64,000 nucleotides of DNA from an uncultured Clostridia bacterium (GTDB taxonomy: Bacteria > Bacillota > Clostridia > Christensenellales > CAG-138), in the NCBI GenBank assembly GCA_946411635.1, contig CAMKES010000002.1, positions 134,585 through 198,584 on the forward strand. The letters are read 5' to 3'. The position numbers and the translations under genes were made by a program. Each line of letters starts with the position of its first letter. The stretch's first letter is position 1. The notes below the pieces were generated by a model that was given only the letters and a program-made list of their open reading frames with translations, did not search any database and was not told the origin of the DNA. Of the stretch, positions 41,650 through 45,248 are shown piece by piece.

Positions 41650-41681
41650 CGAAAAAAGGCGTTCCGTGCGGGAACGCCTTT
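41650..41681 (-). terminator. glmM operon terminator
   Basis: The minus strand reads AAAGGCGTTCC-CGCAC-GGAACGCCTTT followed by TTTCGTT (six U in a row counting the stem end). Its 5' arm lies inside copy 1 of the 36-bp repeat. Confidence 0.75.
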
Positions 41682-41785: not shown

Positions 41786-43132
41786 TTACGCCAGATGCCC
41801 CTTCGCCTTGATGACGTCGATCACGGAATCGACGTATTTTTCGCAGATCTCGTCCGTATCCGCCTCGACCATGACGCGGATGACCGGCTCCGTGCCGCTC
41901 TCGCGCACGAGGATGCGGCCGGTGTCGCCGAGCTCGTCGGCGACCCGTTTTACCGCCGCCTGCACGTCCGGATCGTTCTGCGCGTCGGGCTTGGACTTGA
42001 CGCGGACGTTCTTCAGCACCTGCGGATAGAATACGACCGGCGCCGCGAGCTCGCTCATCGGCTTGCCCTTTGCGAGCATGACCTCCATCAGCTTCAGCGA
42101 GGTCAGAATGCCGTCGCCCGTCGTTTCATACTTCAGGAAGATGGTGTGACCGCTCTGCTCGCCGCCGATGCGGTTGCCGGTCTTTACCATGTTTTCGTAG
42201 ACGTACTTGTCGCCGACCTTGGTCTTTTCGTATTCGATGCCGACCTTGTCGAGCGCCTTGTAGAGACCGAAGTTCGACATGACGGTCGTGACGACCTTGT
42301 TGTTCAGGAGCTTGCCGCGCTCCTTCATATACAGGCCGTAGATATAGAGCGTATGATCGCCGGTGACGACGTTGCCCTTTTCGTCCACGCAGAGGCAGCG
42401 GTCTGCGTCGCCGTCGTAGGCGAAGCCCACGTCGAGACCGTTCTCGACGACGAATTTCTGCAGATGCCCGATGTGCGTCGAGCCGCAGTCGGTATTGATG
42501 TTGTAGCCGTCCGGCTGGTCGTTCATGACGTAGACCTTCGCGCCGAGCGCTTCAAATACGCCGCGCGCGATCATCCAGGCCGCGCCGTTCGCGACGTCCA
42601 GTCCGACCTTGACGCCCTTGAAGCTGTACTTGCTCATCGAGATCAAAAAGCCGATGTAGCGGTTTCTGCCCGCAACGTAGTCGACGGTGCGGCCGATCTC
42701 GTGACCCTCGGCGACGGGGACCTCGCACTTGCCGTCGAGATAATCCTCCACCTTCAGGATCGTTTCTTCGTCCATTTTCTCGCCGTGTCCGTTCAGAAGC
42801 TTGATGCCGTTGTCATAGTACGGATTGTGCGAGGCGGAGATCATGATGCCGCAGTCGAAGTCGTCGACGCGCGTGATATACGCGACCGACGGCGTGGTCG
42901 TGACGTGCATGATGTACGCGTCCGCACCGGACGCCATCAGCCCCGTGCAGAGCGCGTACTCGAACATATAGCTCGACCGGCGGGTATCCTTGCCGATCAC
43001 GACCTTGGCCTTCTTGTTCTGCCGCGCGCCGTAATACCAGCCGAGATACCGGCCGATCTGCACGGCGTGCTCAAAGGTCAGGTTCTTGTTCGCCTCGCCG
43101 CGAAAACCGTCCGTTCCGAAATATTTGCCCAT
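41786..43132 (-). CDS. glmM: Phosphoglucosamine mutase
   Basis: 448 aa (MGKYFGTDGFRGEANK...) with the active-site segment ISASHNPYYDNGIKL. The ATG at 43132 has a GGAGGA RBS 6 nt upstream. Confidence 0.95.
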   Translation of the reverse strand: MGKYFGTDGFRGEANKNLTFEHAVQIGRYLGWYYGARQNKKAKVVIGKDTRRSSYMFEYALCTGLMASGADAYIMHVTTTPSVAYITRVDDFDCGIMISASHNPYYDNGIKLLNGHGEKMDEETILKVEDYLDGKCEVPVAEGHEIGRTVDYVAGRNRYIGFLISMSKYSFKGVKVGLDVANGAAWMIARGVFEALGAKVYVMNDQPDGYNINTDCGSTHIGHLQKFVVENGLDVGFAYDGDADRCLCVDEKGNVVTGDHTLYIYGLYMKERGKLLNNKVVTTVMSNFGLYKALDKVGIEYEKTKVGDKYVYENMVKTGNRIGGEQSGHTIFLKYETTGDGILTSLKLMEVMLAKGKPMSELAAPVVFYPQVLKNVRVKSKPDAQNDPDVQAAVKRVADELGDTGRILVRESGTEPVIRVMVEADTDEICEKYVDSVIDVIKAKGHLA

Positions 43133-43794
43133 CACCGTTCCTCCTTTGATGCGACCGTTCCGTTGTCCTTCCAGATGCTGTACGGCGGTACGACCCCGCG
43201 CACGCAGGACGTCGGATAGACGTTGCTGTGCGGCCCGATGACCGTGCCGGGATTGCAGACCGCGTTGCAGCCGACCTCGACGTAATCGCCGAGCATCGCG
43301 CCGAACTTCTTGATGCCGGTCTCGATCTCTTCATCGGCGCCGTGCACCACGACGAGTTTTTTGTCGCTCTTGACGTTCGAGGTGATGCTGCCCGCGCCCA
43401 TGTGGCTGTAATAGCCGAGGATCGAGTCGCCGACATAGTTGTAATGCGGGGTCTGCACGTGATCGAACAGGATCACGTTCTTGAGTTCCACGGAGTTGCC
43501 GACGACGCAGTTCGCGCCGACGAGCGCGCTGCCGCGGATGAACGCACAGTGGCGCACCTCCGTTTCGGGTCCGATGATGCAGGGCGCGCCGAGATACGCC
43601 GACGGGAAGACCTTCGCCGTCTTATGCACCCAGACGTGCTCCGAAACCTCCTCATAGTCCGCGCCGAGTGTCGGCCCGAGCGTGAGGATGAAGTCCTTCA
43701 GGCCCTTCAGCGCCTCCCACGGATAAGTGAACTGCAGGAGATAGTCCTTTGCAAGCGTATGATCGAGATCATACAGGTCTTTGATCGTCATCAT
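43132..43794 (-). CDS. Left-handed beta-helix (hexapeptide-repeat) transferase, GlmU C-terminal-domain-like
   Basis: 220 aa with hexapeptide-repeat segments (GAPCIIGPETEVRHCAFIRGSALVGANCVVGNSVELKNVILFD..., YVGDSILG). The ATG at 43794 has a GAGAGG RBS. It lies between nagB and glmM. The exact acceptor substrate is not determinable from sequence. Confidence 0.7.
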   Translation of the reverse strand: MMTIKDLYDLDHTLAKDYLLQFTYPWEALKGLKDFILTLGPTLGADYEEVSEHVWVHKTAKVFPSAYLGAPCIIGPETEVRHCAFIRGSALVGANCVVGNSVELKNVILFDHVQTPHYNYVGDSILGYYSHMGAGSITSNVKSDKKLVVVHGADEEIETGIKKFGAMLGDYVEVGCNAVCNPGTVIGPHSNVYPTSCVRGVVPPYSIWKDNGTVASKEER

Positions 43795-43796
43795 GC

Positions 43797-44588
43797 TCAA
43801 AGCCTCTCGTTTCTCTCGATGTCGAGGAAATACTTGTACGTATCGACGGTCAGCTCGCCGCACGCCGCCTCGTCGCACGCGATGATCGCGGCGTTGTGCA
43901 GCTGCAGTGCGGAGCAGGTCCACTTATGGCTGACGCCGCCTTCGACGGTCGCCGCAAGCGCGCGCGCCTTGTTGTGTCCGTTGATCAGGATCAGCACTTC
44001 TTTGCTGTCCGTAACGGTGCCGACGCCGACGGAAAGCGCCTGTGCGGGGACCTTTTCCGGATCGTTTCCGAAGAAGCGCGAATTCACGATGCGCGTGTCC
44101 GTGGTGAGGTTCCGCACGCCGGTGCGGGAGTTCAGCGAAGTGTACGGCTCGTTGAACGCGATGTGTCCGTCCACGCCGATGCCGCCCATGAACAGGTCGA
44201 TGCCGCCGTATGAGCGGATCTTCTCCTCATAGCGGGCGCATTCGCCCTCGGGATCATCCGTCATGCCGTTCAGAATGTTGATGTTCTCCGGCTTCATATC
44301 GACCAGATGATCGAAGAAATTCTCGTGCATGAAGTACCAGTAGCTCTGATCGTGCTCGTGCGGCAGGCCGAGGTATTCGTCCATGTTGAAGGTGACGACG
44401 TTTGCAAACGACACCTCGCCCGCGCGGTTCATGCGCGCAAGCTCCCGGTAAACGCCGATGGGGCTCGAGCCCGTCGGAAGACCCAGCACGAAGGGACGGC
44501 TCCCCTGATGCGCGTTGATCTTCGCGGCGATGTAGCGCGCCGCCCAAAGGCTCATTTTTTCGTAATTGTCCTGGATGACAACTCTCAT
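43797..44588 (-). CDS. nagB: Glucosamine-6-phosphate deaminase/isomerase (NagB type)
   Basis: 263 aa ([24 protein letters not shown]...[18 protein letters not shown]...FNMDEYLGL). An AAGGAGAAACGAT RBS precedes the ATG at 44588. Confidence 0.93.
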
Positions 44589-44635
44589 ATCGTTTCTCCT
44601 TATTGCTTGGTTCGTTCGGTCCGCAGTTCATTCTA

Positions 44636-44797
44636 TGCGAAATCCGTCCGATCTTGCCGACGTTCGGGATCGCTCTGTTGCGGTGTTGATTCCGTTTTTT
44701 GTCGTTCCCTTTTCGACCCGTCGCAGGCCGCGGCAGCATCCGCCGAATCGTTCGATAAACTGCCGGTCCTCGTCGCCCCGAAGGGCCTGGCGCTGAC
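44636..44797 (-). ncRNA. glmS (glucosamine-6-phosphate-activated) ribozyme-like leader
   Basis: The minus strand reads GUC-A|GCGCCAG-GCCC-UUCG-GGGC-GACGAGGA-CCGGCAG-UUUAUCGAA-CGA-UUCGGCGGAUG-CUGCCG-...AAAAGGGAACGACAAA.... The conserved core strands and the P1 and P2 helices appear in the canonical order. The predicted cleavage site is between 44794 and 44793. The 3' boundary is approximate. Confidence 0.8.
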
Positions 44798-44858
44798 GGT
44801 CCTCCAACCCTCCTCCATGAAGAAGCCGTTTTACTGCGTTATGCTCCATAACAGAAGT

Positions 44859-44887
44859 ATTATATACGAAATATAGTATCATGTCAA
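44859..44887 (-). promoter_or_regulatory. Consensus promoter of the ribozyme-nagB operon
   Basis: The minus strand shows TTGACA (44882-44887), 17 nt, then TATAAT (44859-44864), about 60 nt upstream of the predicted ribozyme cleavage site. Confidence 0.7.
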
Positions 44888-44918: not shown

Positions 44919-44957
44919 AAAAAAGGAGAGCGCCGATAATCGGCACTCTCCTTTTTA
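44919..44957. terminator. Bidirectional-looking terminator hairpin
   Basis: AAAAAA-GGAGAGCGCCG-ataat-CGGCACTCTCC-TTTTT (one mismatch). It isolates the nagB promoter from the small upstream ORF. Confidence 0.7.
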
Positions 44958-45089
44958 CAGGTCATCCGCATCCTGTACGGGGCGCGAGCCGTTTCCCGGT
45001 ACGCCGGTATAGCTCCCGTTCACGTCCGACGGGATCTCCGCCGGTTCACGCGGCGCGTACAAAGGCTCCCGCGTCTTTCCGCGCCGCAC

Positions 45090-45248
45090 TCAGAACTCCT
45101 CTTCGCCGAACAGATCGTCGTCCGAACGGTTACGCTGGCTGTCTCCGTCGCGATTCGAGTCCGTATAGCGTCTGCGGGCGTCGGCGTCCTTCCTGCGCTC
45201 GCGGTCGCGGTCCTTTTCGCCGCGTTTCGTTTCGTTGAAAAACGTCAT
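45090..45248 (-). CDS. Small, highly charged hypothetical protein (52 aa)
   Basis: Translation by hand gives MTFFNETKRGEKDRDRERRKDADARRRYTDSNRDGDSQRNRSDDDLFGEEEF. The ATG at 45248 has a GGAGGA RBS 7 nt upstream. The ORF is below the ORF-track size cutoff. Confidence 0.5.
   Translation of the reverse strand: MTFFNETKRGEKDRDRERRKDADARRRYTDSNRDGDSQRNRSDDDLFGEEEF

Follow-up and report, generated by a model that had tools for sequence, protein, structure and literature searches.

We analysed a 64,000-nucleotide stretch of DNA from an uncultured Clostridia bacterium (the window, G000:C2:134585-198584, where G000 is the genome that it comes from; coordinates given without a prefix are window positions) and found a glmS ribozyme, a member of a self-cleaving leader family, at the head of an operon that contains nagB, the gene for a 220-amino-acid left-handed beta-helix protein (here termed LbH) and glmM. 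This operon is probably a feedback-regulated biosynthetic unit for the early steps of UDP-N-acetylglucosamine (UDP-GlcNAc) synthesis, in which NagB would provide an ammonia-dependent route to glucosamine 6-phosphate (GlcN6P) parallel to that of GlmS.

All parts of the operon lie on the minus strand. A sigma-70-type promoter (TTGACA-17 nt-TATAAT, 44859-44887), matching the consensus at 12 of 12 positions, precedes the leader at 44656-44805, which by its sequence is a genuine glmS ribozyme (54.9 bits with RF00234, for which the gathering score is 37). The core blocks AGCGCC (the cleavage site), GACGAGG, UCGGCGGAUG and ACAGAG are all found in the leader, and its core columns are invariant in an alignment with 12 glmS-linked ribozymes. 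As a member of this family, the leader is predicted to cleave itself in response to GlcN6P. An Rfam scan of the genome returned this single copy, located 5′ of nagB and not of glmS, which sits on another contig. The leader is followed by nagB (43797-44588; 263 amino acids, long E. coli/Vibrio type), the hexapeptide-repeat LbH gene (43132-43794; 220 amino acids; partial TIGR03992 match) and glmM (41786-43132; phosphoglucosamine mutase, 448 amino acids; TIGR01455, 548 bits). Two nucleotides separate the nagB TGA from the LbH ATG, while the LbH TGA and the glmM ATG share one (TGATG), and an intrinsic terminator with an 11-bp stem (six GC pairs) and a T-run closes the operon at 41655-41681. The original prediction, made from the letters of the window, had described three packed genes with a 2-nt gap and a 1-nt overlap, a ribozyme-like leader and a single closing terminator (placed at 41650-41681), all of which were confirmed by profile matches and by reading the sequence. 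Contigs from four ruminant-gut RNA libraries, with 0–1 mismatches, span the leader/nagB (44555-44731), nagB/LbH (43701-43851) and LbH/glmM (43004-43404) junctions; these Logan contigs, read as presence only and with uncovered bins left uninterpreted, are compatible with one transcript. Directly upstream of the operon promoter is a small, highly charged open reading frame (ORF) with its own terminator (44955-45248, minus strand).

NagB aligns with TIGR00502 over model positions 1-259 (376 bits, cut-off 237) and with the structures 7lqm (342 bits) and 1cd5 (326 bits) over its full length, including the C-terminal extension. Its residues D70, H142 and E147 align with Asp72, His143 and Glu148, the catalytic residues of E. 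coli NagB. The allosteric site for N-acetylglucosamine 6-phosphate (GlcNAc6P) comprises Tyr121, Asp141, Glu148, Ser151, Arg158, Lys160 and Tyr254 (PMC4281351); Tyr121, Asp141, Glu148 and Tyr254 are kept, with Ser151 replaced by Thr, Lys160 by Arg and Arg158 by Gly. In its gene context, NagB does not resemble a member of a catabolic nag operon: it has neither a nagA partner nor an amino-sugar transporter, and carries instead a leader of a GlcN6P-repressing family.

The genome itself is a 2.06-Mb assembly (95.7% complete) of an organism that is represented in gut metagenomes of cattle and sheep in 11 studies, and its close relatives are metagenome-assembled genomes (MAGs) carrying the NCBI labels Clostridia, Oscillospiraceae or Ruminococcus. 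We looked for the three genes that the original prediction had singled out as informative, full-length glmU, nagA and glmS. Searches with GlmU models identified no full-length glmU in the genome, the best match being the LbH gene itself, and nagA was found neither here nor in any of the four genomes of the genus. An intact glmS is present (G000:C4:4323-6185, 730 bits, N-terminal Cys1 kept), with no ribozyme or other Rfam element at that locus. The earlier description of the operon as a GlmS-independent entry is thus not borne out in this genome, and the NagB route would run parallel to GlmS rather than replace it. The genome has no true glmM besides that of the operon: the latter exceeds the cut-off of 448 bits and has four PGM/PMM Pfam domains and the SASHNP phosphoserine loop, while the next-best locus scores 134 bits. 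Enzyme I and HPr of the phosphotransferase system (PTS) are encoded; the sole Enzyme II belongs to the sucrose/beta-glucoside type, and searches of the genome found no mannose-family or amino-sugar PTS. Given the missing nagA and the type of this Enzyme II, NagB has no recognisable supplier of amino-sugar phosphate except GlmS. RNase J is also encoded, and a tblastn search of the genome found no GlmR/CofD homologue.

LbH matches only the C-terminal half of GlmU (TIGR03992 positions 211-393, 140 bits; TIGR01173 positions 301-424, 48.5 bits) and scores under the GlmU cut-offs of 292 and 367 bits, respectively. No nucleotidyltransferase domain was found in it, so that it differs from the bifunctional GlmU described by TIGR01173. 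Its best relative of solved structure is ST0452 from Sulfolobus (residues 230-390, E 5.6e-22), followed by bacterial GlmU structures, and the equivalents of ST0452 His308, Tyr311, Asn331 and Lys337, the catalytic residues of that enzyme, are all kept in the alignment. Over 30 LbH homologues, including full-length enzymes of ~400 amino acids, the PH.NYVGDS block does not vary, nor do the GAG motif and the Asn. The AlphaFold model of LbH (predicted local distance difference test score 95.9) has a helical arm that leads into a left-handed beta-helix, and a fold search with it again returned ST0452 as the best match (E 3e-12), then GlmU from several bacteria.

The strongest evidence for the role of LbH came from a family sample of 101 genomes in 50 genera. 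An LbH orthologue (57–100% identity) was found in 42 of these genomes and a GlmU-model match (E below 1e-30) in 47, and no genome contained both. The 12 genomes with neither include 9 that are less than 90% complete. In longer proteins the LbH domain is repeatedly fused, by nature, to the eukaryote-type UDPGP (PF01704) uridyltransferase domain, which is that of the NagU family, and it also occurs joined to GlmM and to NTP_transferase domains; one metagenomic UDPGP–LbH fusion, P0259, has 643 amino acids, 133 member sequences and 61% identity to LbH. The conserved motifs, the fold, the mutual exclusion with GlmU and the fusions, together with synteny, indicate that LbH is best read as a stand-alone glucosamine-1-phosphate (GlcN-1-P) N-acetyltransferase. 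Both the resemblance to the acetyltransferase half of GlmU and the missing uridyltransferase N-domain had been predicted, and the profile positions, the ST0452 alignment, the fold and the exclusion pattern uphold them. The NCBI name of the protein, ‘UDP-N-acetylglucosamine pyrophosphorylase’, is a misnomer because LbH has no pyrophosphorylase domain.

Three fusions (P0259, P0257 and P0274) join a UDPGP/NagU-type enzyme to LbH, making a GlmU-like bifunctional enzyme from non-homologous parts. A second, independent split of GlmU also seems to have occurred in the family, where ORFs of 220–251 amino acids match only the C-terminal half (~230-451) of bacterial-type GlmU (G020, G062, G088, G034, G050, G065, G071, G089 and G095). 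In S. aureus, UDP-GlcNAc is made via the UDPGP enzyme NagU, and many bacteria with NagU retain only GlmU fragments (bioRxiv 10.64898/2026.06.23.733835, a 2026 preprint).

A stand-alone acetyltransferase would need a separate uridylyltransferase. Using tblastn with the N-domains of the UDPGP–LbH fusions, we found no UDPGP/NagU homologue in the genome; a PF01704 profile search was uninformative, its control having matched nothing anywhere. The genome does encode a nucleotidyltransferase of ~310 amino acids (G000:C2:369373-370293) that is most like the uncharacterised PDB entry 3pnn. UDPGP-type, NagU-like genes (PF01704) are found in 8 of the 101 family genomes (G012, G016, G017, G021, G058, G059, G085 and G098), and 7 of these 8, from genera g13, g17, g18 and g22, lack a 3pnn-like enzyme, which suggests that the two types are functional analogues. 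On this basis the 3pnn-like enzyme is the best candidate for the uridylyltransferase of this organism. Genus g27 has its 3pnn-like gene immediately 5′ of glmS. In the window's genome, outside the window, the transferase is in frame with a PF09924 domain (the C-terminal, GNAT-like domain of phosphatidylglycerol lysyltransferase) in an ORF of 612 amino acids (G000:C2:369370-371223; L013:1078-2913, minus strand), while in two other genomes of the genus it is a separate ORF of 313–317 amino acids; the long ORF may be a real fusion or the result of a lost stop codon.

We then compared nagB neighbourhoods across the family. Most family genomes encode a short NagB (~245 amino acids) that scores at most 290 bits and shares ~40% identity with that of the window. 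In GlmU-type genomes the short nagB usually adjoins nagA (for example, G036, G073, G090, G079, G045, G049, G040 and G076), and in 18 of the 42 LbH-type genomes nagB forms nagB-glmM-LbH or nagB-LbH clusters; in genus g32 (G032 and G094), such a cluster with LbH/glmM is followed directly by glmS. Clusters of nagB-glmM-LbH recur in many genera, which supports the predicted three-gene unit, and LbH adjoins glmM, nagB and glmS in many genera. No ribozyme was found upstream of the short-type nagB clusters or the glmM-LbH clusters, nor in loci L068 and L069. The long type (376–380 bits) was found in the window, in two genomes of its genus and in G009, a member of another genus, and its cassettes are headed by the ribozyme, in either of two gene orders, nagB-LbH-glmM or LbH-glmM-nagB. 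Since both types stand beside glmM and LbH, two NagB lineages have been recruited to one neighbourhood. G000 and G009, which belong to different genera, share 87% identity in LbH, compared with only 64% for G000 and G030 of the same genus.

To follow the ribozyme–nagB association more widely, we surveyed species-representative genomes and retrieved 80 loci encoding a long NagB at ≥70% identity, all from ruminant or other animal guts and labelled Clostridiales, Oscillospiraceae, Lachnospiraceae, Butyrivibrio, Erysipelotrichaceae, Christensenellales, Mogibacterium, Lentihominibacter and others. Ribozymes were detected with a profile built from 20 ribozymes, and Rfam confirmed 10 of the 12 that were re-tested. 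A ribozyme heads the unit in 24 of the 80 loci, with nagB as its sole constant partner and LbH and glmM optional. The order nagB-LbH-glmM follows the ribozyme in 15 loci, LbH-nagB-glmM in 2, LbH-glmM-nagB in 1 and nagB-glmM in 3; one locus each has nagB alone, followed by a convergent gene (L076), nagB and a GlmR/CofD gene before the contig ends, and glmM-nagB-glmS (L114). Only 2 of the 80 loci have nagA within 4.5 kb. The neighbours of ‘lone’ long-type nagB genes are housekeeping genes (acetate kinase, aldehyde dehydrogenase) and are uninformative.

Several cassettes contain further genes. Both L114 (L114:2880-7226) and L096 (L096:4501-9203) hold nagB and glmS in one tight gene string, the latter, from a Butyrivibrio MAG, reading nagB-LbH-glmM-glmS without a ribozyme. 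Genes of the CofD/YvcK (GlmR) family occur in or beside long-nagB cassettes (L069:4289-5248, L067:1358-2314, L080:2087-3022 and L087:1063-2010), for instance in the order nagB-GlmR-LbH-glmM; GlmR of B. subtilis is a UDP-GlcNAc-sensing activator of GlmS. One cassette-bearing MAG encodes a Clostridiales-1 RNA (RF01699, 96 bits) immediately beyond the 3′ end of glmM, on the other strand (L104:3674-3857).

Among 150 order-level genomes there were 13 ribozyme matches besides those of G000 and G009; 12 lie directly upstream of glmS, and the remaining one, cut by a contig end, does not reach the gathering score. When cassette-linked and glmS-linked ribozymes were aligned, a GAATCAA motif in the loop of the 3′ (P4-region) hairpin, within the stretch AGAATCAA, was present in all 8 of the former and in none of the 12 latter, which suggests that the cassette ribozymes had one origin and then spread. 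Long NagB proteins are 85–94% identical across MAGs (L070-L105) assigned to different families, under the labels Lachnospiraceae, Oscillospiraceae, Erysipelotrichaceae, Christensenellales, Mogibacterium and Lentihominibacter. Together with the pattern of LbH identities described above, these sequence comparisons suggest lateral spread of the cassette in the ruminant gut, or else mis-binned contigs. One carrier is cultured: Ruminococcaceae bacterium P7 (FMUA01, locus L083) has the unit ribozyme-nagB-LbH-glmM, its ribozyme with an Rfam score of 40.7 bits, two glmS genes and no nagA.

Some cassette-bearing relatives differ from the window's genome in their glmS content. No glmS was found in G009, which has a ribozyme cassette and is 98% complete (best match 27.5 bits), or in G017, which has nagB-glmM-LbH and is 93% complete (only an amidotransferase-domain match). 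Of 23 further genomes with a ribozyme cassette, 7 likewise gave no glmS, and 2 of these 7 also lack nagA. Thus 8 of 24 ribozyme-cassette genomes have no detectable glmS, compared with 11 of 101 in the family sample. Across 32 cassette genomes, the locus-derived members of which come without completeness values, glmS is present in 23 and nagA missing from 14. Searches of G017, G251 and G252 found neither glmS nor nagA, and G017 also lacks PtsI. True GlmS independence is plausible only in the relatives without detectable glmS, namely G009, G017 and seven more MAGs, and most of these have nagA, which would allow them to use salvaged GlcNAc instead.

The model that we favour builds on the observed gene identities, ribozyme, operon structure, phyletic patterns and synteny; from these we infer which way NagB runs, what LbH acts on, what cleavage does and which enzyme is the uridylyltransferase. 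A single promoter would transcribe the ribozyme, nagB, the LbH gene and glmM, and at low GlcN6P the mRNA would remain intact. NagB would then work in the aminating direction, making GlcN6P from fructose 6-phosphate (Fru6P) and NH4+, GlmM would convert GlcN6P to GlcN-1-P, LbH would make N-acetylglucosamine 1-phosphate and a separately encoded nucleotidyltransferase, for which the 3pnn-like enzyme is the best candidate, would complete UDP-GlcNAc. Rising GlcN6P would trigger self-cleavage, RNase J would degrade the 5′-OH transcript and the output of the whole pathway would fall. The glmS ribozyme is known to mediate repression by GlcN6P, and in B. subtilis RNase J degrades the cleaved glmS mRNA. 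In the window's genome the route would operate beside the ribozyme-less, glutamine-dependent GlmS and be favoured in the ammonia-rich rumen, where ammonia is typically millimolar to tens-of-millimolar and would aid amination.

Repression of nagB by GlcN6P fits an enzyme that produces GlcN6P; a catabolic enzyme or an overflow valve would call for the reverse. Moreover, with nagB and glmS in one operon, as in L114, L096 and genus g32, a glutamine-wasting futile cycle would result unless both enzymes ran towards GlcN6P. There is precedent for an anabolic NagB in Giardia and Entamoeba, which lack GlmS and use NagB in this way (PMC4281351). The biosynthetic role originally proposed for nagB is accordingly supported by the ribozyme, the absence of nagA from the genus, the type of Enzyme II and the recurrent clusters, with the direction of the reaction itself still a matter of inference. 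Several observations weigh against this reading. Akkermansia lacks GlmS, and its NagB, with a Km of 41 mM for NH4+ and 5.5 mM for Fru6P, performs no amination at physiological concentrations, and the organism needs N-acetylglucosamine (GlcNAc; PMC5902328); amination can therefore not be concluded from a NagB in a genome that lacks GlmS. The intact glmS of the window's genome makes NagB dispensable for GlcN6P synthesis here. The ribozyme would also lower GlmM and LbH, which consume GlcN6P, and this is not obviously adaptive. We considered the Arg158-to-Gly exchange as a marker of anabolic NagB and rejected it: 78 of 80 related species have the exchange (motif SRTG[VLI]R), in or out of a cassette, and it is thus clade-wide in Firmicutes NagB of this kind, whatever the gene context. 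The 3pnn-like enzyme is present in 91 of the 101 family genomes, including those with full-length GlmU, a distribution that does not single it out as a partner specific to LbH and leaves it as a candidate only. Finally, the genus of G009 is represented in the collection by one species, and genes missing from MAGs may reflect assembly gaps.

The readings that compete with an anabolic, feedback-regulated operon differ in what they ask of NagB and LbH. The operon could be a catabolic or branch-point unit in which NagB deaminates GlcN6P to Fru6P and is grouped with GlmM through their common substrate, the ribozyme serving as an ON switch (cleavage removing an inhibitory leader) or for mere trimming. 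The characterised bacterial NagB enzymes are catabolic, including that of Akkermansia, which does not aminate physiologically (PMC5902328); nagA is encoded at some locus in most relatives with nagB-LbH/glmM clusters and in 6 of the 8 glmS-less ribozyme-cassette genomes, in which salvage of GlcNAc is an alternative source, and the window's genome encodes Enzyme I and HPr. We nevertheless consider this reading unlikely, given that the genus has no nagA, that the sole Enzyme II of the window's genome is of the sucrose/beta-glucoside type, that nagA is so rarely near a long nagB, that nagB shares an operon with glmS in several genomes and that repression by the substrate through RNase J would be the opposite of catabolic control. 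No glmS ribozyme is known to act as an ON switch. Equally improbable in our estimate is a homeostatic module, in which NagB, near equilibrium and running in both directions, buffers the GlcN6P that GlmS supplies, the ribozyme adjusts every GlcN6P-handling enzyme together and net synthesis is left to GlmS. Such a module would be consistent with glmS in this and most other cassette genomes, with the reversibility of the NagB reaction (PMC5902328), with the common control of glmM, LbH and nagB and with the GlmR/CofD-family genes inside some cassettes. A buffer that is switched off at high GlcN6P could not, however, clear an excess; G017, G251 and G252, with the cassette and neither glmS nor nagA, need a net source of GlcN6P; and the unit of ribozyme and nagB only in L076 mirrors the ribozyme–glmS arrangement.

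A last alternative concerns LbH, which might acylate another amino sugar or nucleotide sugar while an unrecognised enzyme supplies the GlmU function. LbH falls far below all GlmU cut-offs, acyltransferases of this fold are diverse (the fold search also gave LpxD, WlbB and PglD-like enzymes) and ST0452 itself accepts several substrates. The exclusion of LbH and GlmU is nonetheless perfect over the 101 genomes, and the window's genome has no other GlmU-like match; the gene adjoins glmM, nagB and glmS in many genera; its domain is fused to UDPGP (PF01704)/NagU-type, GlmM and NTP-transferase domains; and the catalytic His, Tyr and Asn of ST0452 and GlmU are invariant in it. We therefore regard a different substrate as very improbable. 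Returning to the anabolic reading, we also advance, more tentatively and as a proposal that could well prove too broad, its extension to a large group of ruminant-gut Firmicutes: an ammonia-using NagB would be a physiological GlcN6P synthase with a co-opted glmS ribozyme, GlmS would have been replaced in some lineages (G017, G251 and G252, without glmS and nagA), GlmU would have been disassembled into an ST0452-like acetyltransferase and a NagU-type or 3pnn-like uridyltransferase, and the cassette would have spread between families.

In comparison with the canonical glmS ribozyme of B. subtilis and other Firmicutes (RF00234), the leader described here belongs to the same RNA family and shares its catalytic core, its position in a 5′ leader behind a promoter, the presence of RNase J in the genome and, by analogy, the would-be logic of GlcN6P repressing its own synthesis. 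It differs in heading nagB, LbH and glmM while the glmS of the same genome has no ribozyme, and in the GAATCAA loop, confined to cassette-linked ribozymes in our alignment. Reviews present the ribozyme solely as a regulator of glmS (PMC5473149, PMC2258182), and our literature search found no published glmS ribozyme ahead of nagB, the main 2011 ribozyme survey (McCown et al., PMC3062183) having been outside the scope of that search and perhaps mentioning non-glmS contexts. As in Giardia and Entamoeba, Fru6P and ammonia are proposed to be turned into GlcN6P by an enzyme of the NagB family (PMC4281351); theirs is eukaryotic, encystment-induced and of a distinct quaternary type, whereas the present enzyme is of the bacterial long type, coexists with GlmS, is under predicted ribozyme control and is known from sequence. 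It belongs to the same subfamily as the hexameric, GlcNAc6P-activated NagB of the E. coli nagE-nagBACD regulon, which it matches over its full length with 4 of 7 activator-site residues kept (the other three being the exchanges noted above), but has no nagA, nagE or nagC partner and is predicted to be repressed rather than induced by an amino-sugar phosphate. LbH has the fold and the catalytic motif of the acetyltransferase domain of GlmU and ST0452. Stand-alone C-terminal acetyltransferase halves have been proposed in bacteria of the Planctomycetes–Verrucomicrobia–Chlamydiae (PVC) group and some Clostridia with split systems of NagU and GlmU fragments, an arrangement described only recently (bioRxiv 10.64898/2026.06.23.733835); unlike these, LbH is nearer to archaeal ST0452 than to bacterial GlmU, and its genome has a 3pnn-like candidate partner in place of a NagU/UDPGP homologue. 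New here are the finding that LbH and GlmU exclude each other, the fusions to NagU, the 3pnn-like candidate, the ribozyme-less short-nagB clusters, the cross-tabulation of glmS and nagA and the cultured carrier P7.

GlmS is regarded as the universal, essential entry to the amino sugars of the bacterial cell wall, and the ribozyme as controlling glmS alone; both are being pursued as targets for antibiotics. If our reading is true, the 220-amino-acid ‘pyrophosphorylase’ entries in databases would have to be renamed, and the operon would be an instance of a naturally split GlmU as well as the first re-use of the glmS ribozyme for a non-homologous, isofunctional enzyme. The cultured carrier Ruminococcaceae bacterium P7 makes the idea directly testable. 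For the gut bacteria that carry the operon, it would mean a second entry to the pathway that is independent of glutamine, and so saves ATP, and that fits environments rich in ammonia, the rumen among them.

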